A stretch of 63,821 nucleotides of DNA, counting the filler, from Folioceros fuciformis (taxonomy: Eukaryota): the NCBI GenBank assembly GCA_049999805.1. It is 7 parts of 7 records of this genome, joined end to end, with 100 filler letters (N's around TTAATTAATTAA, not from the genome) between each part and the next. Parts side by side here need not be neighbours in the genome. Positions count along the whole stretch, not along the records: positions 13,202 to 31,097 come from JBNGIO010004407.1; 6 more parts are not named here. One strand, written 5' to 3'. Of this stretch, positions 5,339 through 62,161 are shown in pieces. Below the pieces are notes generated by a model. It was not told the DNA's origin. It worked only from the letters and a program-made list of their open reading frames with translations, and did no database searches. The position numbers were made by a program, and so were the translations under genes. How positions within the stretch are numbered: the stretch's first letter is position 1; each line of letters begins with the position of its first letter.

Positions 5339-8300
5339 ATGGCAACCAATCCAGTTGTCAATACATCGATTGTCAACACCACGAAAGTGGAATTTAGGGA
5401 TCGAGACCGGTTCAATGGCAGCGACTACGATACCTGGCATATGTGAATCACGGCCTTCTGGAGGAGCACGACCTCATGGGAATCGTCGAAAGTACAGTTC
5501 CCAAACCCACGACTGCAGGAGGCGCCTCCATCAACCAAATCGCAGCCTGGGTAAAGAAAGACAAGAGGGCCATCAGCATCTTATTCTCAGCACTGGATAA
5601 GAACATGCTCTAGCACACTCAAGGCTAGAAGACCGCCCACGAGATCTGGAAGGTGTTCAAGGACATGTTCGCAGCACAAAGCTCCATGTCAATAGTAAAC
5701 GCCCCACGACAATTCTACCTACTAAGAATGAAGGAAAGTGAGATGATCGAGCAGCATGTACACAACTTCATATCAGCAAGAGCAAAGCTAGCATCCAGTG
5801 ATACCACACTAAACGAGTACCAAGCAGCAGTTGCGTTACTAACATCCCTTCTTGCATAATACAAAACGCTTGTAAGCTCGCAGAGCTCAGCCCTTCGTCA
5901 GGCCCAAAGTGCAGCTCAATTAGGAGCCATACTTGCATACACCTTTGCAGAGGTTCTAGGCGCATTCCTAGAGGAGGAAGCCAGCAGAACAACAACTCAA
6001 AGGCCTTCTAGCAGAGCCAACCACACACTCTTCACATCAAGAGGCCATGGAGTTCAAAGAGGAGGTTTTCGTAACAGTCCCCCAATCCGCAAGCCACCTG
6101 GACAAGCGACACAAGGCAACTTTAGCCCCAACAATCGCTTCATTAGCAGACAACCATAGAAGGGCACTTGCAACTAGTGTAAAATACCAGGTCACTTCGA
6201 GTACGAATGCAGGAAGAAACAAAACGGAGAGTCAAGGAGAGACGTACCTAGAAATGAGTCCTATGTCACTACAGTGAATCCCACTCCAACAAACTCCATC
6301 CTGGCCGTGTACCTCACACTTACAAGGACAAACAGGACGAGATGGTTCCTCGACTCTGGAGCCACAACACAAATTTGCAACTGTAAGAACATGTTTAGCA
6401 CTTACCGTGACGTGCTTTCTCATCAGCACGTTTTGCTAGGAGACGACAGTGCTCTCTCAGTCAAAGGAACTGGTGATGTTCAACTCAAACTATCTAATGG
6501 CGAAACACTTACCATCAACGGTGTACTATACGTCCCCACGATGACAAAGAACTTGCTCTCAGTCAGGAAGCTTGCCACTGAACATAGCCTGGTAATCATC
6601 TTCCAAGGTAATCACTGCACCATTCACCACTCAAGCGACCCAGGTAGCACAACCTTAGCTTATGGCCTTCCCTATAATGACCTCTATCTTCTAAACATAC
6701 AATCCTTCTCCTCACTCCTCGCCGATGGAACATCCTACAGTTCACACAAGGAGTCACTCCTTTGGCACTGCACAGCTGGAGACATGAACCCCCGATATTT
6801 ATATCAACTTGCAAACCCAGATATGTACAGAGACCCCGTCAAACTCAAGGTCCCCTCAGACTTCTTCTGCGAAGTATGTCAGTATACAAAACTCAACCAA
6901 CTTCCCTTTACAAACACAAATCCAACTTGTGCTCACAAGCTCTTAGAGGTCGTCCATTCTGACATCTGCAGCCCTATGAGCGCCACTTCCTTTGGAGGGC
7001 ACCAATACTTCATTACCTTCCTTGACGAGTGGAGTTGCTACTATCTCATCTTCTTCCTGAAATACTAGAGTGAGGCCCTTACCCGTTCCAGGAGTTTGTC
7101 TCTTTAGCTGAATGCCACACTGGGTTCCAAGTCTGCACCCTACGTACAGACAATGGGGAAGAATATATCAGTCATGATTTCCAACAATTTTGCAGAACCC
7201 AAGGCATCCAACGTCAGTACACAGTACCTCATACACCTCAATAGAACCCATTCGCAAAAAGACTCAATAGGTCTATACTTGAGATATCTAGATCCCTCAA
7301 ACTTTCAGGACTCTCCCGTGGCTACTGGGCGGAAGCAGCATCCACCGCCATCTACCTGAAGAATCGTCTGCCCACTAAGGAATTGCCAAACACCACACCT
7401 TTTGAACATTGGACAGGCCACAAGCCTCGCATCTCCCACCTGCAGATCTTTGGTAGCCCTGCTTTTGCCCATATAGCAAACGACATTAGAAGAAAATGGG
7501 ATGATAAGGGCAAAAAGCTTCTATTCATAGGCTACTCAAACCAGGTCAAAACCTACAAGCTCTTCGACCCTTCAACCCGCGAGGTAACCCTCTCCCGCTG
7601 TGTGCACGTCAATGAATCTCACATTCTTCACACTTACCTCCATGGCATCACCACTTCTTCACCATTTCCCACTGCTGGTACGATTGGTTCTTCCCCTCTT
7701 GACCTTGAGGAGGGCACATATGATGACTGATGAAATAGGTCTAGATTAGGGCATTATTCATTAGGGCCTCATAACTTAAACATTATTATCTACCTAGGGT
7801 TATTTAGGTAGTTAGTAGTTATATTAGTTACAACAACTTACGGTTGCAACTACTTATGGTTGCAACCATTTATGGTTGTAACCACCCAACTACCCAGCCT
7901 ATTTAAAGGCTTGTACTTTACTCATCTTACATTGTTTCTTCTTCTTCCAATCTAAGAGCTACAAATTCTCATCAATGACACCCCTTCATCTTTTCTTCAA
8001 GATCAGGAGGTTCCTCCACCAGTCCTTGAACCTAAACAAGATGAAATGTTAGCACCAAAACAAGTAAGTCAACAAGCACCAGAGGTAATTCCCCACCAAC
8101 CTGTAGCCCATTCAGTTCCATCACAGCCTCTTCCCCAAGATGTACAGACCTTCAGGCGATCCTCAAGGAGCAAGCCACCAAGAGAAGAATGGAAGGATCC
8201 ACCTTACACACTTGGAGACACGCTGATCGGTAGAACTCCTCCTTCAGCATAACCTACACCTACAGACACTCAGACGCAAGTGGATCAGCTGCACCTCATC

Positions 8301-10592: not shown

Positions 10593-12230
10593 AAGACGAA
10601 CAATAATCAGTGGTTTGGTAGAGGCAGTCTAGTCGCAATCTTGAACCTCTCAGCACTCATGCCTTAGAGGACAAACTCCTCTGCAAACACTGTAACCACT
10701 GCTAGACAAGCACCTATGTCTGTCTCACAAGGCATCATGGCTGTCTATCTTACCCGGAATCTTGTCGACCATCATGGCTAGTACTTGGATTCTTGTGCCT
10801 CTATGCACATATGCCACACTAAATCCTTCTTTGCTACCTATGAAGCAATATCTTCAGACACTTTCGTGCTCTTGGGAGACGACTCTGGCCTAAGAGTCGC
10901 TGGAAGAGGCACAGTTCCTCTAACACTTGCTGATAAATCACAAGTCACCTTACTAAACGTGTTTCATGTCCTTGTCATGGTGAAGAATCTGATCTTTGTT
11001 GCCTTGCTAATGAAGATGCAGATATTTATCCTTGTTTTTTACCAAACCTATTGTACGATGAAAAGATGTGATCATGATCAGATTTCTAGTAGCGCGTATC
11101 CTATCCAAGACATCTACAAATTGGATGCTCATGCATCTAACACCGAAATTGCTGAGACAACCCTAGCAGTTCGCCAAGGAAACAAGACTGGAAAAAATTG
11201 AAGCCTGCAGATGGCACCTAAGGGTAGAGCATCCTAGCAATGGTCTCTTTAAGCAGATTGTTGGCTCAGATCTATACCAGGAGTCGATTGGCCCTCTTCC
11301 TGACCCTACATTTTGCAAGACTTGCATACTCTCCAACCAAAGGCAAGCTTCTTTTCCTGAACGCAAGCCAAATCAGAACAAGTCTATCCTGAAAATTGGT
11401 TCACTCCAACCTTTGAGGTCCTATGAGCACAATTTCTTTGGTAGAGCTCTCTATTTCCTAACCCTAATTGATGACCATTCAAGAATATGCTTCACATATT
11501 CTCTTGAGCGTAAGAGCTAGACTTTTGATACTTTCAAGACATGGCTGGCTATGGTTGAGACACAGACCTCAGCCAAACTATAGTGCTTGCACACCGACAA
11601 CGGCAAGGGATTCACTTCAAACCAGTTTTCTAAACTCTATGTAGACAAGGGTATCGTGCGGTAATCACAATCGCCTACACACCCCAACAAAATGGGGTGG
11701 CTGAAAGACTTAATCAGACTCTACAATGTATGGCCAAAGCCAGGCTTAAACACTCAAAGCTAGATAGCCAGTATTGGGCCGAGGCCATAGCCTTTGCCAC
11801 TTACCTGCGAAATTGGCTTCCTTCACGTTCCTTTCAAGGTCGCACTTCTTATGAATTATGGACTAGCTCTAAACCCTCAATTGCTCACTTACAAATCTTT
11901 GGATGTGCTGCCTATGCTTGGATACCTGCGGAGAAACATAGGAAGTTAGACGAAAGATCAGAAAAAATTCTCTTTCTTGGTTATGAAGATGAGATGAAGG
12001 GTTACAAACTTTACTATCCCCTTACAAGCACCCTTACTTATGCTTTCAATGTCAAGTTTCTTGAAGACCTCTTGGTGTCTGAAGTTGATACACTGTCTGC
12101 TAGCTCTCTTCCTTCTAATCATGAGCCCGATAATTTGTACGAGGATGTTTTTATTCTTGATCAAGTGCCACTCCCTGCAGCTGCCCCTATTGCACCAGTT
12201 GCCAATGCTCCACATGTGGCCAATGTCTCG
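10593..12230 (+). mobile_element. Ty1/copia protease-integrase fragment
   Basis: LDSCASMHIC, TDNGKGFTS, PQQNGVAERLNQTL, YWAEAI and HLQIFGCAAY motifs, interrupted by stops. Confidence 0.9.
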
Positions 12231-13101
12231 AGACGGGGTGGACTATTATCAGTGATCTCAACTAGGTTGGAGGCATCATTAAGGTGCTCCTAGTCTTGCT
12301 GAATGTGGACACCCCAACAACAGAAACCACACCAGCCCGCGCACCCCGGCCGTTGGCAATTGGGAGGATGTTGTCCTCCACGCACTCCTCGAACTCAATC
12401 AAAAGTTCCTCAAAAACATTATAACAAAGATGGTTGTTTGTGACATCAGCCCAAGTGTGGAGGCAAAACCCCAGGCACTGATTGCCAACGGGTTCCACCT
12501 TTAGTGGCCACACTTATCCCACTATCGTTGAGACATTGGGTTTCGTTCCCACGAAGGAGCGATGAGGTTCCTTGCTACTGTGGATGGAGGGTCGGACTTG
12601 ATCGACTCGATGATGGATTCGAGGGCTCCCCTCCAGCTCCGATCAGGCGTAGGACAGGCCTCGCTGTCCGGCGGTCAGCTGCGCCTCTCTCGGTGCCCAC
12701 AAACTCACTTCAGTCACTACAACAACCCTAACCTCTTAGATCTGCGACTTCCCTCACTCACTTCACTCACTCTCTCACTCTAGCACCAACACCAGCAACT
12801 AACAATGACACCACTACCTTCTACACTTCCCTACTGACTCCTCCTACCCGGCAAGAGTCACTAGACTAACCCCAGAGAAAAGAAAGAAGGGAACACACTC
12901 CCCTCTTGGATATCTCCCCCCCACAACCTTACCAGACGCCATGAAACATGGCCGGCCTACAGCACTTGTCCAAACAGGGAACAAGAGTGGATAGGTCGAG
13001 AGAAAGACACATCCTTTACAATCAAGAGTTAGGGGCAAGTCCTTACACCTTGGTCATTACACCTTGTGATCCTACCAGACACTGTACAGCCGGCAACACG
13101 C

Positions 13102-13201
13102 NNNNNNNNNNNNNNNNNNNNNNNNNNNNNNNNNNNNNNNNNNNNTTAATTAATTAANNNNNNNNNNNNNNNNNNNNNNNNNNNNNNNNNNNNNNNNNNN
13201 N
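13102..13201. other. Artificial contig joiner (also at 31098-31197, 39231-39330, 45981-46080, 51402-51501, 62062-62161)
   Basis: Identical N44-TTAATTAATTAA-N44 cassette, which places stop codons in all six frames. Confidence 0.97.
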
Positions 13202-13204
13202 TTG

Positions 13205-13358
13205 GAATTGTGCGTCAAAACCTCATGTTGTCTTCTAAATGTTATTATGAATAAAAAGCGAATATGATTGATTCCACTAAAAGACAGTTTTTTTAAATTG
13301 TGCATCAAAACTTCATATTCTCTTCTACATGTTATTATGAATGAAAAGCAATTATCAT
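13205..13358. repeat. AT-rich imperfect direct repeat (2 copies, ~90 bp period)
   Basis: AATTGTGC.TCAAAAC.TCAT.TT.TCTTCTA.ATGTTATTATGAAT.AAAAGC occurs twice. Confidence 0.7.
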
Positions 13359-13563
13359 AAAAGAAAACTCAATAATTTTCAAACATTGTTTAAATCCAAA
13401 TATTTATTGTTCAAACACCCATTTGAGAGACAACTCTTAGCAGATTGCCTTATAAAACAAAAGAACAAAAATTCTTCCGCAAAAATGTGTCCGTCCGTTC
13501 CAGTCCTTTCTTGCCATCGAGCTGTTTAGCAAGCTTGGGATGGGGACACAGGTGCCATAGCAA

Positions 13564-15064
13564 TTAGGAGGAGCCTTTGGCGCACCATTTGCCTCCGTGA
13601 ACTGTGAAGATAAAGGGGTTCTCGCAATCAAAATCAAATCCGTAGTTTCTGGCCAAGTTGAGCAAACGGTTAACGATAGGCATGGGCAGAGTGGTCTTGC
13701 GCGACAGTACGAACACGGACTTGGTCACCGCTCCCGACGGACCCGGTTGGCAACTCACTACCAGGGCGGCGTCGTACCCGGACGCCGCTTTGCCCGTCGC
13801 AGCCGCTATCCAGTATGGCCCCGTGGCGGTCTTCTGACCGGGTTGCATGAAGTGCACGGTTAGCTTACCCGGGGAGGTACGGTTCTGCACGCCCACGCCC
13901 AACCCGAACGCCTCAGTGAGCGGCCGGGTATCGTCGGCGGCTACCAGTTTGCTGCCGCTGGAGACGGCGAAGGNNNNNNNNNNNNNNNNNNNNNNNNNNN
14001 NNNNNNNNNNNNNNNNNNNNNNNNNNNNNNNNNNNNNNNNNNNNNNNNNNNNNNNNNNNNNNNNNNNNNNNNNAGCTTTCCGGCCGCAAACGGGTTTCTT
14101 GGGAGCAAGGTTTCCGCGGCGGAGATGAGACGGGAGCGGGATGAGTCGATGGATTCCACGTGCTCCTCTAGGGATAGGGCCTGGAACTTGACCTGCGAGG
14201 CCATTGCTCTGAGGCGCTGCAGCTGGAATGCCTTCTTTCCGTCCCCTTGCAGTAGTTTGGAGTCTCGCTGTTGGACCTGACGGATCTTGGATTCCAGGTC
14301 GTTCAGTCCCACGGCCAGGCTGCGGACGGCATTCTCGATTGTGGATATGGCCGCTGTGTACGTGTGGACGGAGCTTGTTTGGAGATGCCCCGTCAGTGCG
14401 ATCACCTGGATTGGATTCAAGACGAGGAAAAGTGGGATCAGGCATGTCGTGGAGTGGTTCTGAACGGGCCAGGGTTTAGAGGAGGGAGGTAGGGTTTTAC
14501 CTGGGAGAGCGCTGTTGAGATGCGGCCGGTAGGTCCTAGCTCAGAACAAATTGATCGGGCTGCGTTGCAAGCGCCGACGGATCCGAGATCGATTTGAGAT
14601 ATGCCAACCTTGGCAAGCGGGCCGACCACCTGCGTACGGGTGGAGCCAGCACGGTTGGTGAAGTATGCATCTGTCCTTTCTTCCTTCGTTGGTGGAGGAG
14701 AGTGAGAGCATTTTTCACTTGGAGAATGCATGAGCTAGGGTTATACCTGGACTCCCCGGTTCTTGACGCCAATGGTGATGCCAGATGTTGAATTTGCCGA
14801 CTTGGTGAAGGTGTAGTTGGCCGATACGCAGGTAACTCCTTCCTGGGAAAGCTTGAAGCGAGCAGTGCTACCTATCTCGTACCACACGCCGGTGTAGGCT
14901 TTCAGATCGATGGAGTCGAAAGTTGGAGGGTCAGGGCATGTTGCTGGGGTGAAGGAACGTGTGCACCATGAGGATGCAGCAAAGTTGGACGGCACCAACG
15001 ACAGGAGCAGGCATAATGCAGCCACCAACTTGGAGGTCCATGCGTCAGTGCCGAATTGTGCCAT
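13564..15064 (-). CDS. Secreted lipocalin (ApoD/Blc-like) with a large helical insertion; exons 15064-14747, 14629-14501, 14405-[gap 14073-13974]-13564
   Basis: Signal peptide LVAALCLLLSLVPSNFA and SCR1 CPDPPTFDSIDLKAYTGVWYEIG, then CVSANY. The C-terminal half reads PGKLTVHF..GPYWI..YDAALVVSC..VFVLSRK (SCR3). Two phase-0 GT-AG introns keep the frame. Confidence 0.82.
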
Positions 15065-18000
15065 CCAGGAGTGGGAGTATCTCCTAGCGGAGAGACTATC
15101 GTCTGGTGGAGCATGCATATGGAGAGAACTGAAAGAGGTCAGAATTTGAATAGAGACCTGTGGCAAATCGATTGCATTCGCGTAACAATACGATCCTCTA
15201 ATCAGTCACACATGAAGACGGTGCTAGCACATACCAGTTCGGTCCAGTGCGCTGCCTGACTCCCTGCACCTCATCTTGTTGCCTCCGACCCCAGCATTGC
15301 CTGTTTTCCCTCCCAATTGTCACCATGTGGACTGCAGTGGTGAGCAGCCGTCTGCATTGTCTAGGAACGAAGAAGCCAATCTGCTCAAGCAAACCATCTG
15401 CCTTGTATTGGAGAGACTGACTGCAGGGGTTGTCTGAAGCTTGAAGCCGTTGAAGGTCTGGCAACGAAGACCCTCGGACTCCTTGCTGGGACTTCAATTA
15501 CGATGATCCTTCAGCAAGGCTGACGCCCTGCTTTTTATTGACTTGGTCTCTCTCTTTGATACTGAGCTGCTAACATTCCTTTCTCCCAGGTGCTGAGAAG
15601 GTCTCCAGCCTCTCTCCTACGCAGTGAAGACAACAACGAGGAAGAGAGAGGATATGTTCATGCCATGAATGGTGGTACATATATGGGCAACAGCATGGGG
15701 CTACCGCGCGGGGATACCACAGTCACAATCACCTCCTGCTCAGTCAGATCCATGGCAATGTTGCTTGTTCTGGCGCGGGAACAACATAGTCATTAATGCT
15801 GGGTGGAACCCTGTGAGCGTGGAGTGTCCTTGAAGTGCAAGCAGGTGGGTTTGATATATCAGGATGGCAAAGAAAACTTCAGAGCTCAACGGCCTGCACC
15901 ATTACTCCGAATCTCATGGTTTGCTTCCCCTCCCTTTGATTTTGTGTCCGTCACCTTATCGCAACCCCGTACGTGCAGAGACATCGCTCATTCTTGACAC
16001 AGTACATATGTCTGACAATTTTGTGAAGAGGGGGCGGCCAACGGCGCGGGACACTTGGAATGCGGGTCGGCTCCATCCAGCGTGGTATTTCGCACGGAGT
16101 TGTGATGGATGTAAAACTCGTTCACATGTGCAGGATAGAAAGAGAGGTGTCGTACATGGACCGTTGCTGGGTCAAGGTTACGAGACGGGGCTCAGGGGCA
16201 AACTGTACCAGCTGACAGGCCATGGAGGCTTAGGTCACCTTATTGCGAGCGCCAAAGATGCCAACGCTCTAACTCCTCCATAAAGCCGGGTTACCGTTCT
16301 TTCCCACTGCTCTATTTAATGCTGCACATAAAAGTGATTCCGTTGCCTAAGTTCCCTAGATAAAGCTGAAATAAATAATATGTAGCTTACCAAATTCCTG
16401 ATTCCTTTAAGATAACATGATTTATATTATACCTGTGTCGTATCCTTTGAAAATATCTCCCAACTGGAGTTCATATTTTGGAATAAATTATCTGCTGGTT
16501 AAACTACTGACCTAAAAAAAAAGCAGTAGTTTTTTTGTCATGACTTGGATAAATCTCGAATCTATGTTAGACTTATTGCATCAATTTTGATATTATTTAT
16601 ATAATTAAATAATAATTTTAAAAATGTATAAAAAAACCATCTCCTTATGATACCATAATGTTATGAAATTAGTATATCCACTTGCAACTTTAAGCTATGA
16701 CAACATTTGCACAAAAAATTATGTAGAGATTTGGGAGAACCAATTAAGAGTTTCTATGAAATAAAAGATTCTTTTATTCCAAGCGAATTTCAAGATTTTT
16801 ACATGTTCATCGGTTAATGATTATTTACTACTCATATCTAAATAATCCTATGAATAAGAGGATTTTCATTAGAATAAATTTCACACCATAATAAATATTC
16901 TAGAGTTGAAGTGACTTTGCATTTTCAATTCAAAGTATAAACATAAATGTTCTACACAGTTTGTCATATGGGACACCAACGTGGAAAACATAATCACTAT
17001 TCTTGAAAAAGTATTATTTTCTGAAGCATAAACATAAGCACAAGTTTATTACAATTGAAAGAAGTTATGAACAAAAGAGAAGAATATCTTGTTTGAAAAA
17101 TCTATTTAATTTTTAGTTTTTTTTTCTATGTATGCTACATACATCTATGGGAAAATTTAATTTTGCATAATTGGAGTAATTATAAAATTAGATCGTGACA
17201 CAATTCTTTAATCCTCTGGCAAGGAAGATATTTTTGAGCGAACATTCTTAATCATTTCAAGTGGGCGGTGGTGGTGGGCAACTCATGTGTCCAAGTGCTG
17301 CTCTAAATATTTATTATTTAGGGTAGCCTCATTGAAATTTTGGTCATCTTCTAGACTAGGCTCTTTCTAAGGACCTAGGACAGTGAGATACTGCACTTGG
17401 AGTAGCATAAGGAGTAGGATAGATAAAGTATGTAACATTCCAAAAGTGGGATTGGTTTCTCTTTGTGAGGAATCTTGGGTTCTCCTTTATGCATCTTGGC
17501 TTTTTGGAAAGTTGTCCCCGAAGTCATGGAGGAGATGTTTGGCTCTTGGGTGTCCTAAACAAAGACTTGGTTCTTGTGATAGAACATTACCCTTGTTACA
17601 CATGTGAACTGAAAAGAGAACTAGTAGAACAAACTATTCAGATCTGAACAGTTGTCAACTCTATCCCTTAGTAGTGGGCAGAGCATGTTATGGAGTGGAC
17701 TTGGGGTAAAGAATTCATGCACACGTGTGGAGAGAACACGTGCACATGCCATGCCATGGCAGTTCACTTAGGCATGCAGAAAGTCAAGTGCTATTATGGT
17801 GGGGACAATGGTTTAAAAGAACAGAATAGTTAGTTAACTATGTAGAAAATGGTCGTTGTTTTCAGGAAACGCCGCGGAGAAATGTTACACACATTGCTCT
17901 GGTGTCGTTCGTGTGTTCAGTTAGAAAATGTTTGGTGGAGGAGCGGGAGACGGAGCTGGACCGGGAGAGGATCAGGGAGAGGGAGAAGAGCAGGGAGAGG

Positions 18001-18301
18001 GAGAGGGAGGAGGAGAGTCGTGTTGTGAGAGTCGTCTGGGTTGCAGGGACCACGCCGAACTTGTGTTCAAACAAAAGTGGAAGGATAGACAGAGATGGCA
18101 GGCAGGGGTGGGGTAAGATTGCGAGCAGATGCACTGCATGTGTGGTTTGTCACACACATTCGCCAAGTCAGGTCTGGAGAGGAAGCGAGGAAAGCCTAGG
18201 GTCAGGGCCAGGGCCTGGGCCAGAGGCAGGGCCTGGGCCTGGCTCCGACAGCAAGCGGATGGCGTCTTTGGACAAGCGCCACGAATTCGTAACACTCCAC
18301 A

Positions 18302-18397
18302 TTAGAATAGGAGGCAGGCGGTATCTTTGCCGTAGTGCATGCCGCATCCTTGTGCAGTTAGAATAGCAGGCAGCGGTATCTTTGCCGTAGCGCATGC
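18302..18397. repeat. Direct repeat (2 x ~40 bp) upstream of ABCC gene
   Basis: TTAGAATAG.AGGCAG(G)CGGTATCTTTGCCGTAG.GCATGC at 18302 and 18358. Confidence 0.75.
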
Positions 18398-18988
18398 ACC
18401 AGAGCGTCCAATCGAGCTGAAGCAGCAACCAACTCGCACGATGCGCTATTTCCTTAGAAGTTGCTGCCACGCTATATATATGTCCCGTCGGCCCCGCACC
18501 CGTAGGTTGCTTCGGGCGGTGTCGAATCAGGATGACTCGTTTCAGCGCGGGACGATTTCTGCACGGCACTTCCTCACGATTCAGATTCGATCGCCTGTCA
18601 CGAACGGGAACCTGCCCCGCCACTTTCGTCCGTGAGGTAGAGCTCGTAGCAGCAGCCAGTGAGAGGGCGACGATGCTGCACTCTGGCCCCCGGCCGCCCT
18701 TGTTGATAGCACGTCCACGTGCATTTGCCTCTTCTTTGCTCCTGGTGTTATCATCCTGTCCGGGATGCACCTCCCAGGTGTCTCTGTTCTTGGGCGGTGC
18801 ACGAGTGCCGGAGAAGGCTCTGCAGGCGGTGTCTGTGCTTTCCCCACAGACCTTTGCCTGCAGGCTGGGTGCTAGATTTTGTTGGGGCCGGGGCCAGCGC
18901 AGGGGGAGGGTGTGGCCAGGGGGTAGCTAGACTACTGATAAGGATTCGGGAAGGAAGTTTCTCTCCTGTCTGGTTTGGGAGTGGTGGG

Positions 18989-21900
18989 ATGGATTCTGAG
19001 CACAAGGATGCCACCGACGTGCATGACGGGGAGCAGTTCCGGATGCCCACAGCTGGACCCAGCCCCGAGCTGCGAGCAAACATTATCAGCTGGCATCTCT
19101 GGCTGTGGGTGTACTCGCTGGTGAAGACGGGGAATAAAAGACCTCTTCAGGCAGAGGATCTGTACGATCTGAATCCGAAGGAGACGACCGGCTACTCCGA
19201 AAAGCAGTGGAAGGGTGCCATCGGGAGAAATCAGCGCGGAAATAATGGGAGGGGGCTCCCGGTGTGGACTCTGCTGTTTTCTTCTCTTGGGAGGGAGTAC
19301 TTTCTGGCATCGTTGTACAAGCCGGTGTGGCTGGCCCTGGTGTTGCTGCAGGTGTATGTGCTCAAGGCCCTGGTGACGAGTGCTGAGAAGGATAGGCATC
19401 TGCAATGGTGGTGGGGCACGTTGCTGGTTGTTGCCATGCTGGTGACGTCTACTGGGATGAGCATCACCCAGCACTCTTGTTTCACGCGCAGCCAGAAGGT
19501 GGGCATGAAGGTGCGGTCTATCATGGCCTTGGCGGTGTTCGAGAAGGTGTTGGCCATGAAGTCTGTGGCCTTGGCGGAGAGCAGCAGCGGCCAGATGCTG
19601 AACCTGGTGACCAATGACACGCAGAAGGTGCTGGATGCTGCCATGTACTTCCATTTCGTGTGGTTTTCGGTTGTGGAGATCGTGGTGGTCGCCGGCTTCT
19701 GTATCTGGGAAGCTGGAGTGAGTGCGATTCCAGGGGTGGTGTTGGGGCTCTTGACGCTGCCGTTGCAGGTCTGGATGGCCCGGGCCGTCGGGAGCCTGAG
19801 GAGCAAGGCTGTGAAACTGACCGATGCCAGGGTGAGGATGGTGGCGGAGATCCTGACTGGAATCCGGGTCGTCAAGTACAATGGCTGGACTTCGGCGTTT
19901 CTGCAGCAGGTGGAGGATCTGCGGAAGGCGGAGCTGCATTGGATCAGGAGAACTGCCTTCTTAAGGTCGTGCACGTCGGCTATAAAGGATTCTGTGACTC
20001 CGTTTGCGACGTTGGCCACGTTCGGGACCTACGTGGCTTTGCATCATGGGAACCTGAACCCGAGCAAGGCGTTCACCATTCTTGCTCTGTTCAGCGTGCT
20101 TGTGAGGACTTATTCCATCGCACCCACCGGGGTACAGGTCTTCGGAGAGGCTCTCATTTCTATGAGTAGGCTGCAGTCACTGCTTGACCTACCGAATGGG
20201 AATTCGGATGAGGAGACGATGGAGCGGCTCAAGAAAGTTTACGGGCCTGCTGTTGCTCCCAAAGAAGCCGTTGCCGCAGTTGGGTGCAATTTCTCCTGGA
20301 ACGTCAGTGACATTCCCGTGAAGAGCTTTTCCAAGGATCGGTCTGGGAGTGGAAGCCTGAGAAGGAGCGGGAGACGGATTTCTAGTAGCTTCCGGGGAAG
20401 CATGAGCCTGAGGATAGCAGATGAGGATGCTGTTGACCTTCAGCTGCAACGGTCTTTGTCGGATGCTGCTGGAAAATATATCTTGAACAATGTCAACATG
20501 AAGGTGGAAAAAGGTGATTTGGTGGCTATTGTGGGGCCTGTTGGAAGTGGGAAAAGCTCCCTGCTTCTTGCCCTGTTAGGAGAGATGCGGACTCTGAGTG
20601 GGGTTCATTACACTGACGGGAGAGTTGCGTATGTGCCTCAACAGCCATGGATATTCAACGGAACGGTGAAAGACAATATCCTCTTCGGACACCAGTACAA
20701 TGACGAGAGGTACAGGCGAGTCCTATTTGCTTGTGCTCTGGAGCACGACCTCACCCAGTTTGAGGCTGGAGATCGCACAGAGATCGGGGAGCGAGGGATA
20801 AACTTGAGTGGGGGGCAGAAGGCAAGGATCAGCTTGGCCCGTGCCTGCTACAGCGATGTGAATATTGTGTTTTTGGATGATCCTTTGGCCGCTGTGGATG
20901 TGCCAACTGCGAAGCACTTGATGGTGCATGTCTTGGGTGGAGTTCTCAAGGGAAGGACAGTCATCCTTGTTACCCACAACAGGACTTCCCTCCAATATTG
21001 CAATAGGCTTTATCTCATGGAAAATGGTCAGCTCCGAAGCATGACGAAGGAGGACATCTTGAGGCACAGTGCAGCCCAGGGCATGACAGAAACAACGGAC
21101 GAGGATCAGACCGCACAGACGACAGAAGCTGACGAGGCAGAGCTGCAGGAGGAGACAGATGCAGGACCGGATGAAACAGGAGAGCAGGTTGGTCAGCGAA
21201 ACCCCCAGGCCAAGACGGACCACGATTCAGCAGATGCAGAAGGGCGAACTCGGGATGGGGATGAGAAGCCCAGCAACAAGAAAGGAGGCAAGGGGGCCAT
21301 CACAGTGGACGAAGACAGAGTACAAGGAGTGGTGGGCTGGTCCAACTTCGTGGCTTACGTCAGAGGTGGGGGCCGCGGCCTGTGGGCAATGGTGGTAATA
21401 GGCTTCGGCCTGGCACAATCAGTGCGAGTCATGGTGGACTACTGGCTGAGTGCGTGGGTGGACAGAAAGTATGGACTCAATACAAAGGTATATATCATCA
21501 CATACGCTGTCTTCGCGACAGGTGCGCTGTGCCTCTCTCTCTGCCGAGCCCTCCTCTTCACAGAAGCAGCAATTCGAGCAGCCAAGCAGATGCATTCGGA
21601 CATGGCTGAGAAGGTCTTCAGGTCACCTCAGCTTTTCTTCGACCAGAACCCTGTTGGCCGGATAGTGAACAGGTTCAGCAAAGACCAAGCACTTGTCGAT
21701 GAGTTGCTTCCCTTCACGGCCTTCACCACCGCAGAGAACTTGGTGGGCTGTCTCGGCTCACTTGCCATAATCGCGGTTCTCATCCCCTGGTTCATATTCG
21801 TCATGCCACCATTCATCATCGGCTTCTTCTTTCTGCAGCGTAGATACATGGTGGTATCCAGAGAGCTCAAGAGGCTAGACGGCGTCTCTCGGTCCCCGAT

Positions 21901-23116
21901 GTACGAGCACATTGCACAGACCCTGGCAGGAGTGACGTCAATGCGGGCCTACGGGGTGGGATCCCGAGCCCACACACGTTTCATCGCTCTGGTTGATGCT
22001 AATCACCGGCCATACATCCTGTTCGTACATGCTGGACGCTGGCTGGGCATAAGGCTGGACGCCCTCGCCGCTATGTGCGTTACAGTTGCCGCCCTCCTGG
22101 TGGTCCTGCTCAGACACAAGCTTGGTCCAGGAACAGCCGGAGTTGTCCTGGTACAGGCCCTGCAGCTCACTGGCTTCTTCCAGTATGGTGTCCGCATGGC
22201 TGCAGAGACCGAGAACTACTTTACCAGTGTAGAGAGGATCCAAACATACGCCAACCTCTCAACCGAAGCAGATCCCCACACACCTCCAGGAGTGATCCCA
22301 GAGGCCTGGCCCAGCACAGGTGCCATCGAATTCTCGGATTACACCATGGCCTACAGGGAGGACTTGCCTCCGGTGCTGAACAACCTCTCCTTCTCCGTCC
22401 AGCCAATGAAGAAGGTGGGCATTTTAGGGCGCACCGGAGCCGGCAAGTCCAGCCTCGCAGCAGCCCTGTTCCGCATGGTGGAGAACAAGGCTTGCTCCGG
22501 CACCATCCTAGTGGACGGCATAGACATCAAATCCGTAGGCTTAGATGACCTCCGGCAACGCTTGTCTATGATCCCCCAAGACCCCGTCCTCTTCCGAGGC
22601 ACAGTCAGAATCAACCTGGATCCCTTCAACCAGCACGCAGACGAGGATATCAACGAGGCCATCCGCAAAGTGCACCTGAAGAAGAAGATCCAGAGCCTGG
22701 ACAGCATGGTCGAGAGCAACGGGGAGAACTTCAGCGTAGGCCAACGGCAATTACTCTGCCTTGCCAGAGCCCTCCTCCGCAAGTCCCGAATAATCGTCAT
22801 GGATGAGGCCACAGCTGCTGTGGACGGAGAGACCGACCAACTCATTCAAACAACAATGCGTGAGGTGTTCCGAGACTGCACTGTCCTCACAATCGCGCAC
22901 AGAATCGAGACAGTGATCGACTCCGACCTACTCCTGGTGTTGGCCAAGGGCGGGCGTATTGCGGAATTCGACTCCCCCGCCAACCTGCTACGCAAGGCTT
23001 CCGATACGGAGGAGCCGGGAGTGTTCGCCAACATGGTCTTGCAAAGCGGGAAGCTCATAGCCGCCCAGTTGATGCAAGCGGCAGAAAGGGGTCGCCCCGA
23101 GCCGAGCCAGTCGTGA
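18989..23116 (+). CDS. ABC transporter C family (MRP-type, no TMD0), intronless, ~1375 aa
   Basis: TMD1-NBD1-TMD2-NBD2 layout. Lasso-like KRPLQAEDLY; NBD1 GPVGSGKSS, LSGGQ, FLDD; FFDQNPVGRIVNRFSKD; NBD2 GRTGAGKSS, FSVGQ, VMDEATA. First ATG is at 18989. Confidence 0.95.
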   Translation: MDSEHKDATDVHDGEQFRMPTAGPSPELRANIISWHLWLWVYSLVKTGNKRPLQAEDLYDLNPKETTGYSEKQWKGAIGRNQRGNNGRGLPVWTLLFSSLGREYFLASLYKPVWLALVLLQVYVLKALVTSAEKDRHLQWWWGTLLVVAMLVTSTGMSITQHSCFTRSQKVGMKVRSIMALAVFEKVLAMKSVALAESSSGQMLNLVTNDTQKVLDAAMYFHFVWFSVVEIVVVAGFCIWEAGVSAIPGVVLGLLTLPLQVWMARAVGSLRSKAVKLTDARVRMVAEILTGIRVVKYNGWTSAFLQQVEDLRKAELHWIRRTAFLRSCTSAIKDSVTPFATLATFGTYVALHHGNLNPSKAFTILALFSVLVRTYSIAPTGVQVFGEALISMSRLQSLLDLPNGNSDEETMERLKKVYGPAVAPKEAVAAVGCNFSWNVSDIPVKSFSKDRSGSGSLRRSGRRISSSFRGSMSLRIADEDAVDLQLQRSLSDAAGKYILNNVNMKVEKGDLVAIVGPVGSGKSSLLLALLGEMRTLSGVHYTDGRVAYVPQQPWIFNGTVKDNILFGHQYNDERYRRVLFACALEHDLTQFEAGDRTEIGERGINLSGGQKARISLARACYSDVNIVFLDDPLAAVDVPTAKHLMVHVLGGVLKGRTVILVTHNRTSLQYCNRLYLMENGQLRSMTKEDILRHSAAQGMTETTDEDQTAQTTEADEAELQEETDAGPDETGEQVGQRNPQAKTDHDSADAEGRTRDGDEKPSNKKGGKGAITVDEDRVQGVVGWSNFVAYVRGGGRGLWAMVVIGFGLAQSVRVMVDYWLSAWVDRKYGLNTKVYIITYAVFATGALCLSLCRALLFTEAAIRAAKQMHSDMAEKVFRSPQLFFDQNPVGRIVNRFSKDQALVDELLPFTAFTTAENLVGCLGSLAIIAVLIPWFIFVMPPFIIGFFFLQRRYMVVSRELKRLDGVSRSPMYEHIAQTLAGVTSMRAYGVGSRAHTRFIALVDANHRPYILFVHAGRWLGIRLDALAAMCVTVAALLVVLLRHKLGPGTAGVVLVQALQLTGFFQYGVRMAAETENYFTSVERIQTYANLSTEADPHTPPGVIPEAWPSTGAIEFSDYTMAYREDLPPVLNNLSFSVQPMKKVGILGRTGAGKSSLAAALFRMVENKACSGTILVDGIDIKSVGLDDLRQRLSMIPQDPVLFRGTVRINLDPFNQHADEDINEAIRKVHLKKKIQSLDSMVESNGENFSVGQRQLLCLARALLRKSRIIVMDEATAAVDGETDQLIQTTMREVFRDCTVLTIAHRIETVIDSDLLLVLAKGGRIAEFDSPANLLRKASDTEEPGVFANMVLQSGKLIAAQLMQAAERGRPEPSQS

Positions 23117-24793
23117 ACACTTGACCACCTAAGGTATCATATCAACACTTCCCCAACGTATGTACCTGTAGCCCATAATTCTACCTATAGCACGAGAATC
23201 CTTACTTCCTTTGTCTAGCAGCATCCACCATTCCGCATGGTCCATTCCGCTGCCCATAGCATGAGACTCAACGTTTCCTTGCACCATCTAGCATTCACAA
23301 CCTTACATGCCCAGAACGATTGTACCACGAATCGTGGAATCGTGAAACAAATGTGATTAAACGTCTCCTCCAGAGCTGGCGGTGACGCCGAGAACAGTGT
23401 CCTTGGATAACGATGGCCAAAAAACAGAATGAAATCTGCGCAGCATGAAATTTGCAAAACCCACGAGTCTTGCACCTGACGTTCACTCACCTTGACCTTT
23501 TCTCATCCGGCAGGCCCGCCGGGTGCCATCTGGGACGATAACGGGGACCACCTCAACCTGGCCATCAAAGTGCTCATAGCCCGCTGCCCAGCACAGGAGG
23601 AGGGAACCGGTACGAGGCCACAGGCCAGACCAAGTTCGGGAGCGCGGATTTTGTGAACGAGATCCTCAAGGACTCGGCATCCGTGCCCTGCTCTTCCCAA
23701 AATAGGCAGCGGCATCTCCAGCATCACTGTGTTGCTCACAGGCAACTCGCAGGGCAGGAGGAGAGGAGTGTTCCCCGACGGGCGGCCGGGTTCAGGGACA
23801 GACAACGCAGACCATTGGATCCCATGAGGGTTGGTTAAAGCATCGAATCTCAGGAGAAGCAAGCGTTCTATCGTCGAGGATGTAACGTACATTCTACAAT
23901 CCGTGAGCTGAAATTGTCGCGTGAGAGTATGTCCAGTGTGCGACGAAGACTTATGATAATCTACGGAAAACTTAACTTATTTGATAAAACCCTAACCTAA
24001 AGCCCTAAAAAGAAAATTGTATCACACGCAGGCAGACGAAAACTCCATGTGACGCTTTAGTGCTAGGTGTCCTATTAAACATGCATATGTTGGATGCTCC
24101 ATGCTACGCCATTGAAGAAAACATGCATATGTTGTATGCTTTATACTATCCCTGTATTATTAAAGGTGCATATATTTCATGCTTCATGCTGGATGCTTCA
24201 TATAAAACTCCAACAAGAGTGGCTTGTCTTGTTGAAGGAGATGCATGGGTAGCATGCTTCATGCAAAATTGCTCCTTCAAGAGTGGAGTGGTGGCAACTA
24301 CTTAAACTTGGCGAGATAATTGGTGGTATTAATGGCAGCTATGTAGTTAAGATTTGCTTAGGGGACATATAAGGGCTAAGGTAGAAGTTCTAAATACACT
24401 TGTTGTTTTAGTGGGAGACTAAGTTGTGAGTTTTGTGTGTAGAGATTGGATAGCAAACTTTTTAGAGAGTCAAGGATAGTAGCATTTGGGCCTACATCTC
24501 TAGACTCTATTGTGTTAGTGTTCTCAATAAAAAGTAGCACCTTGTGATTGTCAAGTCATCAATGGACCACATACAACTTGAAGCTTGATGTTGTGTAGTG
24601 TGCTTGAGTGTGTTGAGAGTTGTATGCTGGTTTCTTACAAAGGGAAGGCACTTTCTTACAAGATTGCATGAAAGGGAGGGATTGGAACATATATTGTATA
24701 AGTAAGGCAGCCTTCATGCAACCCATGTTAGGACCTTGACATAGGTTGGCTTTCCAAGGCTTCATACTTCTTCATTTCACCCCTCAAGAACTA

Positions 24794-24937
24794 CTAAACA
24801 ACTCTAAATGCTCTCAGCTAAACAACTCTAAATGCTCTCAACTGAACAACTCTAAATGCTCTCAACTGAACAACTCTAAATGCTCTCAACTGAACAACTC
24901 TAAATGCTCTCAACTAAACAACTCTAAATTCTCTTAA
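24794..24937. repeat. 24-bp tandem repeat x6
   Basis: Unit CTRAACAACTCTAAATGCTCTCAR, head-to-tail with no spacers. Confidence 0.95.
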
Positions 24938-25104
24938 CTCGCATAACATGGCACTAGACTCTAAGCACCCACATGCTCGTGGTTTTCTTTTTAATCTAAA
25001 GGCTTACACAATAGAGTTTGGCCATTTACATGCAACTGGCCATTGCCTTGACAAATTTGCTTTCAAAGCTCTCCACAACTATCTCTGTCTCCACTCAAGT
25101 TTAG

Positions 25105-25529
25105 GGTATTAGGGAGCTCACTAAAGTCGATGGCTCTAAAGGTCCAAAATCTACGGGCACTTTGCACAGACCCTATACATCCATTATACGGAGTGACATC
25201 CATTATACGGAACTACGGGGGTGGGGTCCGGAGCCCAAAAATGCATTGGCGCACTGATTGATCCCAATCCCAAGGCACATGCCCTTGCAGTGCGCGCCGG
25301 CCGGTGCCTAGGCACCACACTAGGCTTCCTCGTTGCCATGTGCGTTACAGTTGCTGCCCTCTTGGTGGTCTTGGTAAGACTCAAGCTTTGTCTTGGAGCA
25401 GGCCCTGCATCTCAATGTCTTCCTCTAGTTCGTTGTCCGCATGGATGCAGAGACCGAGAACTATTTCACCAGGGTGGAGAGGATCCAAACATATACCAAC
25501 ACTCAATCGAAGTAGATCCTCACACACCT
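25105..25529 (+). pseudogene. Degenerate partial copy of ABCC TMD2 (corresponds to ~21855-22285)
   Basis: Shares ATGTGCGTTACAGTTGC, GCAGAGACCGAGAACTA and GAGAGGATCCAAACATA with the intact gene. Contains indels and ends at an LTR start. Confidence 0.9.
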
Positions 25530-27520
25530 GTAAGACTACTATGTTAAGATATAGCACGCTAGCCCTTATGGCACAATTCGGATTAAGGCAGATACATAAT
25601 AGGCACCATATCAAACCGACACCGAGACGGTTACAGGCACATGATGCTTGGGCACAGCCCTCATGTATTGAGCGCATCTACTCAGCCAATTATTCAATCC
25701 ATACTACAGCAATCCATCCAGTGTCATATGTGACCGAAACATGGTATCAAAGCGGGCACTACAACACCCCTGATATCTGCACTACATAATAATGAGACAT
25801 AAAGACTTACAGCCATGCCAAGCTTACGGAGGAGACAGTGTTTGCTCCAAAGAGCAAACCAAATTTTAGAGAATATGGAAATTCAAAGAACCCGCAGACA
25901 GCAGAGCTACCTAAAAGAGGCCTATGAGAACCTTTTGCACTACGCTTGGATCAGGACCTGCTTTGTCCTCCTTGTGATCGCAAAAGAATTATACGTCATA
26001 GGTTTTGTTGACCCACAGGACTACAACTGAGCATACATACACTTCTCCTTCCTCTACACACAAGAATGAGCACAAAACAATTCACAATGATTAGACAGTT
26101 CACAACCACAATTGATGTGCACAACCCAATTGACCCAACACAAATTAAGGAATCCATAATTTGCTACACAACCTCTGCAGACAAAATTGTCTTCTCATAA
26201 TTGTCTTCTGCGGAGTGAATGGAGGTCAGCAGGCTTCCTAGTTACTGGGAATGATGATCACTAGAATCACGCCTGCCCTTGGGGAAGGTGAGCCCCCATG
26301 GCTCTCGGGTGAATTTGAGGTTTACGTCTGGATGGTCTTAGCGGTCCACTACTATCAAGGTGATGGGAAGCATTTTCCGCGTCCTATCCAGAGGGCTGGA
26401 CACGAGGTCAAGTTTTCCTCCTGATCATGGTACTTATGCTATGTAAATACGTAGGCAGGGGTCCCCTTAGTATTATAAGGGGATGACAATATCAATCAGC
26501 ATTCTTTTCTTCACGAAAAAATTGTCTTCTCATAGTGCCAGGTTCACCAAATAACCTATACATTCTGCCCCCAACACCTGAAATTGAAGAATTGCAAAAC
26601 AACATTATCCTAATACTACAAAACTTAGAAGCCAACATAGTTCCCAACCCCACTACTTGCAACCTCTACAAAATCCTACTCACTATCCAAGTACAAACTA
26701 CATGCCTACTCAAGCACACAATCCTCACCCTCTAAGCAACTAAGTCATAGCTCTTACCACAATGGCCACATCTTCAATCAACCTGTCAAAGGAAGACCGC
26801 TTTGATGGCCAGCAACACAACTTTGCTGTATGGAAATTCTGTATCACTGAAATTTTGAAAGAACGTAAGCTTCGGGCTTATGTTGGCGGTGTAGGAAACC
26901 CTCCTGTTGTCACAGCACAACTCCCCGCCACCACCACTGCAGCATAGAAAGAGGAGTGGGAAGATAAAAACCAACAGGCCAAAAATATCCTCATGCAATC
27001 TATGAGGTCAGGGAACGTCCAGCAAATCGCAGGTGTAAAGACTATAGCCAAAGCCTAGAAACAGCGACATCACATATATGCCTCAACAAACACTATGCAC
27101 ACAGTGCACACTATTAATTTCTTTGAACACCGAATGTCCGAGACTGACCAGGTGGATCAACACACCATGCACTTTAGGTGCTAGATGACAAAATTTACAG
27201 CCACAGGCTTCGCCATCCAAGAGGATCTTTCTGCAGCTCTCCTATTATCCACCTTACCGGAGTCTTGGGTTAATGTAGTCCAATCCCTACAAGGTGTACA
27301 ACCTCTCACCGTTAACAAGGTGATCAACGAAGAGGCTAGAAGGAAAATACAAAGCAACTCCTTTACAGGCAAATCCTCCTCAAGGGCATTCTTCATGGGA
27401 CGCGGTAGATCTAGGGGCATAGGCCGTGGCTATTTCAGAGGCAGCAATCGAGGCAAAAGTACTTACCCTAACAGAGGACGTGGAAATTATAATCCTTCAT
27501 GGAAACCAGTGTGTGGATAC
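25529..27520 (+). mobile_element. Ty1/copia 5' part (element A): LTR, PBS, leader, gag
   Basis: LTR TG...GAAACA ends 25741, followed by PBS TGGTATCAAAGC 25742-25753. Gag starts 26762 (DRFDGQQHNFAVWK, LLLSTLPESW) and is cut at the zinc knuckle (PVCGY). The LTR start is uncertain (25529 or 25542). Confidence 0.85.
26200..26517 (+). mobile_element. 5'-truncated non-LTR (LINE/SINE-like) insertion
   Basis: Flanked by 17-bp direct repeat AAAATTGTCTTCTCATA (26183-26199 and 26518-26534). Ends in a short A-run. Confidence 0.7.
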
Positions 27521-28676
27521 TGAAGGATCGCTAGAGGAGCATGGTGAAGGAGAAGAGAGGAGGAGGCAAGGAGGAGAGGAGAAAAAAAGGTCACACTCTC
27601 ACAATGAGTCTCTCAATATGCAAGGGAGCTCAAGGGGGTATTTATACCCTCTAGAAGAGCTCCCTAGGAAGCTTCACAAGAAGCGCACAGGAAGCTGTGC
27701 AAGAAGCTTCTAACATATTTGCTTAAGCTAATCTAAACTAATAATACTTAATTAGACACTAATCTTAGACTAAACATGTTAGTCTAAGCACATTGGGCTT
27801 TAGTAACCCTACAACCTCCCCCTTAAAGGCCAATTTACCTTCATGCGAGAGTGGCCTACCTCATGCCCATGAGTGTCCGAGCTTGTGCGAATTGCTCCGA
27901 AGAGAGCCCCTTGGTAAGAACATCTGCAGGGTTCTAACTGGTATGAACTTTGACAAGTTGTACCCTCTTGTCTTCCAACACCGCTCGAATGAAGTGATAC
28001 TTCACTTCCACATGTTTGGTCTTCGCATGAAACACTGGATTCTTCGCCAATTGGATAGCACTCTGGCTATCACAATGCAACACTGGCAGCTCAACCTTGA
28101 TCCCCAAATCTCCCACTAAACGAGCAAGCCACATGGCTTCCTTGCATGCCTCAGTTGCTGCAACATACTCGGCCTCTGTGGTAGATAGTGTTATGCATGA
28201 TTGCAAACGAGATTGCCATGAGACTGCCCCTCATGTGCACATGAAGACGTAACTTGATGTGGACCTCCTTTTGTCCATATCCCTTGCATAATCAGCATCC
28301 ATATATCCCACGACAGATGCATCTTTACTACCAAAACATATGCACAAAGCTTTTGTACCATTCAAGTACCTCATAACTCCTTTCACTGCCTCCCAATGCC
28401 TTCCTGCCAGGGTTTGACATAAACCTGCTAACCACTCCCATTGCAAAGGCAATGTCAGGACGCGTAGCAATCATTGCATACATCAAACTCCCCACAGCTG
28501 ATGAGTATGGNNNNNNNNNNNNNNNNNNNNNNNNNNNNNNNNNNNNNNNNNNNNNNNNNNNNNNNNNNNNNNNNNNNNNNNNNNNNNNNNNNNNNNNNNN
28601 NNNNNNNNNNGCTGAAATCTCATCACTGTTAGTCCCAGCAATTAGCATATCATCCACATAGAGGACTAGAATGAGC
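27521..28676 (-). mobile_element. Ty1/copia 3' part (element B): RT/RNase H, PPT, 3' LTR 27813-27521
   Basis: LYVDDMLIAG, YSSAVGSLMYAM, LSTTEAEY and HAKTKHVEVKYHFIR motifs, PPT AAGGGGGAGG, LTR TGTAGG...CCTTCA. Confidence 0.92.
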
Positions 28677-31097: not shown

Positions 31098-31198
31098 NNN
31101 NNNNNNNNNNNNNNNNNNNNNNNNNNNNNNNNNNNNNNNNNTTAATTAATTAANNNNNNNNNNNNNNNNNNNNNNNNNNNNNNNNNNNNNNNNNNNNT

Positions 31199-33571: not shown

Positions 33572-33597
33572 TCGTCCTGGCAGCTGGGTAAGCTGCG

Positions 33598-37798: not shown

Positions 37799-37824
37799 CT
37801 TCTCTGTCAAATACGGATTGTCCA

Positions 37825-38004
37825 CTAGGTCGCAAGCAGCAAATCCCACGGATGCCTCCCACAATCGTCACTGGTTTGCTCTGTACTACGAAATTGCACC
37901 AAGAGGCTATCACCCTAGGTCGCAAGTACCAGATCCCACTGATACCTCCCAAAATCGTCACTGGTTCGCTCTGTACTACGAAATTCCACCAAGACGCTAT
38001 CACC
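37825..38004. repeat. 90-bp tandem duplication in leader of second HSPA12-like gene
   Basis: CTAGGTCGCAAG...AATCGTCACTGGTT.GCTCTGTACTACGAAATT...CTATCACC starts at 37825 and 37915. Confidence 0.9.
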
Positions 38005-62061: not shown

Positions 62062-62161
62062 NNNNNNNNNNNNNNNNNNNNNNNNNNNNNNNNNNNNNNN
62101 NNNNNTTAATTAATTAANNNNNNNNNNNNNNNNNNNNNNNNNNNNNNNNNNNNNNNNNNNN

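Follow-up and report, generated by a model that had tools for sequence, protein, structure and literature searches.

The window analysed here is a stretch of 63,821 nucleotides of Folioceros fuciformis DNA, filler included, in which separate scaffolds are joined end to end. At the start of one of these scaffolds (13202..31097), which also carries 100-N placeholder gaps, a lipocalin gene was read as three exons on the minus strand, from 15064 to 13564. An earlier note had described the locus as a secreted, ApoD-like lipocalin barrel interrupted by a long helical domain. Its observation is confirmed here, and its interpretation is partly supported. Translation places every string that it quoted on the minus strand, where the note had put it. 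GVWYEIG, CVSANY and IGVKNRG are found in exon 1 (15064..14747), AISTIENAVRSLAVGLNDLESKIRQVQQRD and LEEHVESIDSSRSRL in the open reading frame (ORF) 14405..14074, and GVGVQ, PGKLTVHF, YWI, YDAALV and VLSR in the ORF 13973..13567.

Gene model and assembly gap

Exon 1 (14747..15064, minus strand, as for all features of the gene) encodes 106 amino acids from a start ATG at 15064..15062. A hydrophobic run, LVAALCLLLSLV, is located near the N-terminus behind a short N-region and, judged by eye, looks like a putative secretion signal. The exon also contains two N-x-S/T sites, a CPDPP motif and, in translation, lipocalin strands A-C (GVWYEIG, CVSANYTF, and ITIGVKNRGVQ). Putative intron 1 (14684..14746) is 63 nucleotides long, GT..AG, phase 0, and contains in-frame stops. 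It abuts the N-terminal edge of the insert, and in alignments to the homologues the similarity picks up past it, at 14683, with the frame unchanged. Exon 2 (14501..14683) encodes 61 amino acids that make up the base of the insert and the beginning of helix 1. Putative intron 2 (14406..14500) is 95 nucleotides long and also phase 0. It runs from GTAAAA to TTTTCCTCGTCTTGAATCCAATCCAG, with a pyrimidine tract and a CAG end, and supplies the frame change that is required between exons 2 and 3.

Exon 3 is composed of two parts. The first (14074..14405) encodes 110 amino acids plus 2 nucleotides and contains the bundle helices, AISTIENAVRSLAVGLNDLESKIRQVQQRD to LEEHVESIDSSRSRL. The second (13564..13973) encodes 135 amino acids in the ORF 13973..13567 and ends in a TAA stop at 13566..13564. 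It holds the end of the insert, strands D-H (GVGVQNRTSPGKLTVHF, PYWIAAATG, YDAALVVSC, and VFVLSRK), a C-terminal helix (PIVNRLLNLARNYG), and strand I. In this refined model, the helical coding sequence ahead of the gap is 61 + 110 = 171 amino acids. The long helical stretch of the earlier note therefore stands, but its size, given there as at least 153 amino acids, is revised. The full insert is ~200-210 residues of mostly helical sequence. Gain of the insert at a phase-0 intron, as had been proposed, agrees with its N-terminal edge at intron 1, but the C-terminal edge lies inside exon 3.

The exons have a GC content of 0.55-0.61. The two introns are at 0.46 and 0.53, and intergenic DNA is at 0.22-0.30. 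Codon positions in the helical exon show a coding-like pattern, with GC3 of 0.73 vs GC2 of 0.43. Splice sites are intact, and the exons contain no frameshifts or stops.

The two parts of exon 3 are separated by an assembly gap, a placeholder of 100 N at 13974..14073, and closing it had been proposed as a check on the gene. The locus was found in one public run, X1, which is stored as contigs and was guessed to be RNA; among the runs listed for the locus, none is on record as RNA. Runs X2-X4 contributed no contig to the region. Every sampled word of 14074..15064 is present in X1. A 1247-nucleotide X1 contig covers 15139..14074, continues through 77 letters, and then covers 13973..13870, the shorter side being 104 letters. 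The true size of the gap on this contig is thus 77 nucleotides. Exon 3 has 332 nucleotides before the gap, and 332 + 77 = 409 = 3 x 136 + 1, which places 13973 at codon position 2 and keeps the frame of the C-terminal ORF. The gap is spanned by 27 codons, made up of the 77 letters and 2 nucleotides on either side, and these codons probably encode the end of helix 4. Because the bridge preserves the reading frame, exon 3 is most likely a single exon of ~816 nucleotides. The possibility of two genes, one on each side of the gap, is ruled out by the presence of both sides on one contig, in frame. On its sequence, the locus is one three-exon nuclear gene of plant type, with a predicted protein of ~439 amino acids.

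A joined form that lacks 15138..15589, with GT..AG on the plus strand, also occurs in X1 alongside an unspliced one (depths 22.7 and 57.2, respectively). The joined form is indicative of spliced plus-strand RNA, antisense or divergent, that starts within or just upstream of the 5' end of the lipocalin gene. Two ORFs in this plus-strand RNA area (15569-15793 and 15858-16280) have no Pfam match. X1 contigs cover nothing of 13202-13497 and 13794-13867 and little of 13720-13793, which proves nothing.

Lipocalin identity, homologues, and predicted structure

Both ends of the gene match the Pfam family Lipocalin_2 (PF08212). Residues 29-115 of the C-terminal piece correspond to profile positions 61-138 (E 1.2e-5, 25.7 bits; cut-off 24), and residues 52-90 of exon 1 correspond to positions 1-37 (E 0.0027, 18.1 bits). 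The earlier note had expected two such half-hits. Both were found, but that of exon 1 is under the 24-bit cut-off. Exon 2 has no match in the Pfam scan, and the helical part of exon 3 has coiled-coil-type matches only, all sub-threshold. Lipocalins share short motifs, e.g., SCR1, a G-x-W-Y/F on strand A, and SCR3, a conserved Arg after strand H. GVWYEIG in exon 1 and VFVLSRK in the C-terminal piece align to the equivalent motifs of Blc and ApoD. A phmmer search of the PDB with the C-terminal piece gave one irrelevant match (E 0.39). The ESM Atlas gave ordinary ApoD/lipocalin clusters only, of 182-243 amino acids with scores of 0.85-0.87, and these are leads only.

Two full-length proteins from other organisms carry the insert. 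P0008, "unnamed protein product [Calypogeia fissa]", is a liverwort protein of 427 amino acids that was found with exon 1 among longer proteins, as the one match from 697 candidates (E 6e-12, 61% identity, 38% of the query). A search with P0008, in which 8000 candidates were scored and two proteins passed, gave P0009 (E 7.5e-39, 95% of the query). P0009 is a 413-residue protein named "lipocalin" by JGI, and all 413 of its codons are located on one 1554-nucleotide contig. The two proteins have a common layout of a signal-like start, CPxPP/GKWYEIG, ~200 residues rich in A/S/T/Q/N, and a C-terminal lipocalin half. P0009 matches Lipocalin_2 in two stretches (E 1.2e-12, 48.5 bits) and also PF00061 (E 8.2e-6, 26.5 bits).

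The four pieces of the window gene align collinearly to P0008 and P0009, with ~30 columns vacant at the gap. By BLASTP, exon 2 matches residues 113-159 of P0008 (E 4e-9), the helical part of exon 3 matches residues 148-243 of P0009 (E 1e-5, 24% identity), and the C-terminal half matches residues 283-410 of P0009 (E 2e-23). Because these matches all fall in order, the helical stretch is judged from the alignments to be more than chance. When P0008 and P0009 were compared with the whole window by tblastn, only the lipocalin locus was recovered at E <0.1, and the remaining matches had E >=0.6. A search of longer proteins with the C-terminal piece gave none of the 471 candidates scored. Given the pairwise match to P0009, this null reflects a limit of the word-index search.

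Metagenomes were scanned with the family alignment and with a family motif. The alignment scan matched 186 pattern stretches and gave no relatives. The motif scan gave one locus, L121 (949..2007, plus strand), which encodes a eukaryote-type, intron-containing lipocalin with no insert and with an acidic C-terminal extension of ~100 amino acids. It has SGYDAALVYSC and GKWYE in common with the family and matches P0009 with E 8e-9 and 1e-12, which makes it a possible relative without the insert. Its C-D junction is short. In a treeless comparison, this junction would fit a lineage-specific gain of the insert.

A profile of both homologues has human ApoD (2hzq) as its best PDB match (E 1.1e-8). The match consists of two stretches that flank the insert, with ApoD residues 5-46 and 69-151 aligned to profile positions 51-96 and 331-420. 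The alignment includes CPxPP and ALVYSC, which bears out the ApoD-like CPxPP start described earlier. In ApoD, the Cys of the N-terminal CPxPP and the Cys of the strand-G "SC" are disulfide partners. Eight Cys are conserved in all three proteins (the window protein, P0008, and P0009), and N-x-S/T sites are present. By alignment, six of the eight Cys would fit N-terminal, ApoD-like, and C-terminal pairs. The eight conserved Cys and the N-x-S/T sites would fit a secreted protein.

AlphaFold2 models were made of P0009, standing in for the window protein. With six alignment rows and no bacterial sequences, the mean predicted local distance difference test score (pLDDT) was 58.6, and the barrel was unfolded. 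This model had four confident helices (99-147, 152-195, 201-245, and 248-293), with means over 10-residue blocks of up to 94. Bacterial Blc rows were then collected with a degenerate motif, which gave 120 loci and 82 ORFs. Of these ORFs, 76 were 150-230 amino acids long and 35 were non-redundant at 55% identity; 34 were used. In the resulting 38-row alignment, all five of the Blc rows printed (of 34) have one gap of ~200 columns, placed precisely at the junction of strands C and D. The 38-row model of P0009 has a mean pLDDT of 84.1 and a predicted template modelling (TM) score of 0.69. Strands A (53-61), B (72-81), and C (86-96) are followed by the insert helices (99-147, 152-193, 201-245, and 248-293), strands D-H (300-372), a helix (379-391), and strand I. 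P0009 is thus predicted to have a complete, closed lipocalin barrel of eight antiparallel strands, with an alpha-helix and strand I after it, and its insert is predicted to be an up-down four-helix bundle, with helices of 42-49 residues, in the C-D hairpin. An eight-stranded barrel with a helical insert was the outcome that the earlier note had looked for in such a model, and the interrupting helical domain takes the form of a four-helix bundle in the AlphaFold2 models.

Foldseek matched the 38-row model to ApoD 2hzq (E 8e-6, TM 0.82 by target) and Blc 3mbt (TM 0.87 by target), and also to bilin-binding protein, Sandercyanin, Arabidopsis TIL, and the VDE lipocalin domain. Because the alignments span ~370-380 columns, a single lipocalin chain aligns with both halves and bridges the insert. 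The first, low-confidence model of P0009 gave no Foldseek match at E <= 0.001. By sequence profile and predicted fold rather than by a tree, the gene product is a lipocalin closest to ApoD. An ApoD-like barrel with a four-helix bundle in its C-D hairpin is very probably the correct architecture.

ApoD-like lipocalins (human ApoD 2hzq, Sandercyanin, and bilin-binding protein/insecticyanin) are secreted proteins with an eight-stranded calyx. ApoD and the present family have in common the C-P-x-P-P start, G-x-W-Y-E-I, ALVYSC, and ILSR/ILAR at the end of strand H. In ApoD, strands C and D are joined in ~23 residues (46-69), whereas here ~200-235 positions, predicted as four long helices, are found between them. 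Bacterial Blc and plant TIL (3mbt, 1qwd, and 8wb2) have the barrel fold in common with the family, with TM by target of 0.87, 0.76, and 0.72, as well as the G-x-W-Y-E-I and YLWILSR-type motifs. Neither has the insert, and they are 23-32% identical to P0009. Plant TIL lacks a signal peptide, and Blc is a lipoprotein.

A third group of plant lipocalins, the SLLs, is specific to seedless plants and was named in 2025 (10.1101/2025.03.13.638958). According to the text of that preprint, SLLs are Blc/ApoD-type lipocalins of bryophytes and charophytes, secreted by SignalP/DeepLoc and of unknown function, and those of P. patens include Pp3c11_15530 and Pp3c1_13830 (10.1101/2025.03.13.638958). This description resembles the present family in the putative secretion signal and the ApoD-like barrel, and the full-length homologue closest to the window gene is a liverwort protein. 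The insert-bearing family may be a subgroup of the SLLs. In the text of the preprint, "helical" and "coiled" occur 0 times, and "insert" occurs in the cloning methods alone (10.1101/2025.03.13.638958). Among the papers listed by the literature searches, none was found on a lipocalin with a helical-bundle insertion, the SLL preprint being judged from its text. The earlier note had called the carrier undescribed. This holds for the layout of the insert in the literature searched, but a secreted group, the SLLs, has already been named (10.1101/2025.03.13.638958).

Proposed function of the helical bundle

The most conserved motif of the insert is located at its base, in exon 2, and reads GPL..G..Q..L.S.G.C..AR..CS, which includes a C-x6-C pair. 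Of the four helices in P0009, three are amphipathic (z 2.8-4.1), with the observed value reached by 0-5 of 500 shuffles. In P0008 and P0009, the bundle surface has little charge and many S, T, Q, N, and A residues. In P0008, the region at ~255-305, around helix 4, is markedly hydrophobic (IVPMTIVPDLGKVTYLLASAELAIIVQAG...); its counterpart in the window lies mostly inside the gap.

In lipocalins, the open end of the calyx is surrounded by loops A-B, C-D, E-F, and G-H. Because the C-D loop lies at this end in the textbook topology, the bundle would be positioned at the rim of the ligand entrance. The protein may carry a hydrophobic small molecule or lipid outside the cell. With its amphipathic helices, the bundle would either attach to a hydrophobic surface, be it membrane, cuticle, or wall lipid, or cover the calyx as a lid, and in this way would control loading and release of the ligand. 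The conserved C-x6-C segment at the base of the bundle would be a hinge beside the pocket.

Two analogies can be drawn for the docking of the bundle. The mouth loops of ApoD are hydrophobic, and the bundles of exchangeable apolipoproteins open on lipid. Exchangeable apolipoproteins, e.g., apolipophorin III and the N-terminal domain of ApoE, are secreted, lipid-related proteins with long, amphipathic, up-down helices, which the predicted bundle would resemble. The likeness is a functional analogy only. Their bundle surface is K/E-rich, whereas here it is S/T/Q/N-rich and the bundle is inserted within a barrel. No apolipoprotein family came up when the insert and the whole homologues were scanned with Pfam, and apolipophorin III and ApoE are absent among the 50 matches shown by either fold search.

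Taken together, the gene, the architecture, and an extracellular carrier with a docking or lid bundle form the best explanation, which is favoured by a narrow measure. The docking or lid mechanism of the bundle, taken alone, is tentative and somewhat doubtful. A more specific version is rather unlikely, namely that an apolipoprotein-like bundle in an ApoD-type barrel opens where it meets a hydrophobic surface, be it plasma membrane, cuticle, or spore-wall precursors, and passes lipids to the calyx. Such a single-chain, extracellular "dock and load" shuttle would be peculiar to early land plants.

Several observations weigh against this overall explanation. The frame across the gap is derived from length only, and the stop-free state of the 77 gap letters is an assumption. 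The X1 contig retains both putative introns, and no joint is listed at 14746/14684 or 14500/14406. Given the plus-strand joint at 15138..15589, the X1 reads over the gene may be antisense; pre-mRNA or DNA is also possible. Among the homologues, P0008 has no BLASTP match to exon 3. HMMER with exon 3 against 1.84 billion representatives gave two matches (E ~1e-5) and recovered neither P0008 nor P0009. One of the two, a bacterial-type repeat protein, was rejected as a relative and looks like chance. The family here consists of three members only, and P0008 scores 13.5 bits against Lipocalin_2, below the Pfam lipocalin cut-off, which may explain why it is unnamed. In the model, the likeness of the barrel to Blc is partly built in, because the barrel is confident only after the addition of the 34 bacterial Blc rows. 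For the insert, the model draws on two full sequences. Amphipathicity is lacking in helix 4 of P0009 (z 0.6) and weak in the window's own exons (z 1.5, equalled by 35 and 40 of 500 shuffles). Lastly, the bundle has no sequence relative or specific fold relative, and its top matches are designed four-helix proteins.

The retained introns bear on two alternatives. In one, the helical stretch is intronic or belongs to an alternative isoform, and exon 1 splices to ~13921 (AG before GCG TTC GGG), giving an ordinary lipocalin of ~220 amino acids. An in-phase AG is present upstream of AFGLGVGVQ, the resulting junction would look like the short C-D loop of Blc, and the X1 contigs gave no RNA support for the three-exon form. 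However, two full-length proteins of other species have an insert to which exons 2 and 3 are homologous, in order and in frame, and the codons of P0009 are continuous on a single contig. Together with the codon-position GC pattern of the helical exon and the frame preserved over the 77-letter gap, this makes direct splicing very unlikely. In the other alternative, the locus is a decaying or non-functional copy with unspliced or antisense RNA only, which is never translated. The plus-strand spliced RNA that overlaps the 5' end of the gene would fit such a copy, as would the introns kept in the contig, but the intact exons and splice sites, the eight conserved Cys, the conserved lipocalin motifs, and the coding-typical GC pattern would not. 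Introns 1 and 2 are predicted from sequence, and rarer spliced forms could go unseen in contigs of this kind. A decaying copy is given hardly any weight.

Two further alternatives accept the architecture, or much of it, and concern the bundle. A fold search of the bundle with VIA-align gave a designed maquette, 6z0c, as the best match (Z 15.1, 195 residues aligned). The top 34 rows also include the ClyA-family protein AhlB (6grj, Z 13.3) and HblL1, SmhA, Hbl-B, NheA, and MakA/B/E (Z 9.8-11.2). According to the search tool, Z <~13 is ordinary for helical bundles. Designed maquettes (6z0c and 8d9p) and ClyA-family tails (AhlB) are the closest geometries to the insert (TM by target 0.63-0.69), but with 7-10% identity the likeness is one of generic fold and has no functional implication. 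The presence of these toxins, and the hydrophobic helix 4 of P0008, would suit a membrane-active, ClyA/Hbl-like element. The protein would then serve in defence by disturbing the membranes of microbes, and the barrel would be its sensor or lipid-binding head. A designed protein outranks the toxins, however, ClyA/Hbl/Nhe toxins have no sequence match in the Pfam scans, and no head or beta-tongue domain is predicted, so that there is very little chance of a toxin-like role.

The bundle could also be a protein-protein module (a stalk, an oligomerisation domain, or a receptor- or wall-binding domain) that positions the barrel. Long four-helix bundles often serve as scaffolds for interactions, and trypanosome surface receptors, talin rod bundles, and a plant invertase-inhibitor bundle are among the other fold matches. 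The low-charge, S/T/Q/N/A-rich surface of P0008 and P0009 would also suit such a module. On the other side, every fold match is within the range common for helical bundles, and a pure stalk would leave the insertion point at the calyx mouth unexplained. By inspection, neither end of the protein has a transmembrane or glycosylphosphatidylinositol anchor signal. A protein-binding role is unlikely, though it carries some weight, and the extracellular carrier with a docking or lid bundle is preferred.

Neighbouring features and significance

The scaffolds of the window are chained by linkers of 44 N + TTAATTAATTAA + 44 N, which carry stops in six frames. The linkers are located at 13102-13201, 31098-31197, 39231-39330, 45981-46080, 51402-51501, and 62062-62161. 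Because the window is made of concatenated scaffolds, adjacency across a linker is meaningless. The scaffold of the lipocalin gene also holds an intronless ORF of 1467 codons (18713..23113, plus strand), a full-size ABC transporter with two ABC_membrane and two ABC_tran domains.

Elsewhere in the window, two full-length, intronless ORFs of ~630 amino acids are arranged tail to tail (33595..35487, plus strand, and 35963..37864, minus strand), with a fragment at 38709..39212 (plus strand). The two ORFs are divergent and Hsp70-like, with partial PF00012 matches (E 5e-8 and 1e-8), and represent an unusual family. Two ordinary housekeeping ORFs are present, a class-V aminotransferase (58068..59603, plus strand) that is cysteine-desulfurase-like (Aminotran_5, E 4e-92) and an FGGY carbohydrate kinase (54284..55576, minus strand) that is glycerol-kinase-like. 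Fragments of Ty1/copia-type retroelements, recognised by eye from a gag zinc knuckle, integrase, and reverse-transcriptase-like ORFs, are found at 6178..7730, 10782..12293, 30086..31075, and 42149..45132.

Lipocalins are treated as compact single-domain barrels, and anticalins vary the four mouth loops by few residues. A natural family with a folded domain of 200 residues in a mouth loop would mean that the scaffold tolerates far larger grafts. The position of the domain would also point to surface docking coupled to ligand loading. The liverwort homologue, unnamed and below the Pfam lipocalin threshold, may explain why such genes are poorly annotated. The insert would provide a concrete, testable handle on extracellular lipid handling in bryophytes.

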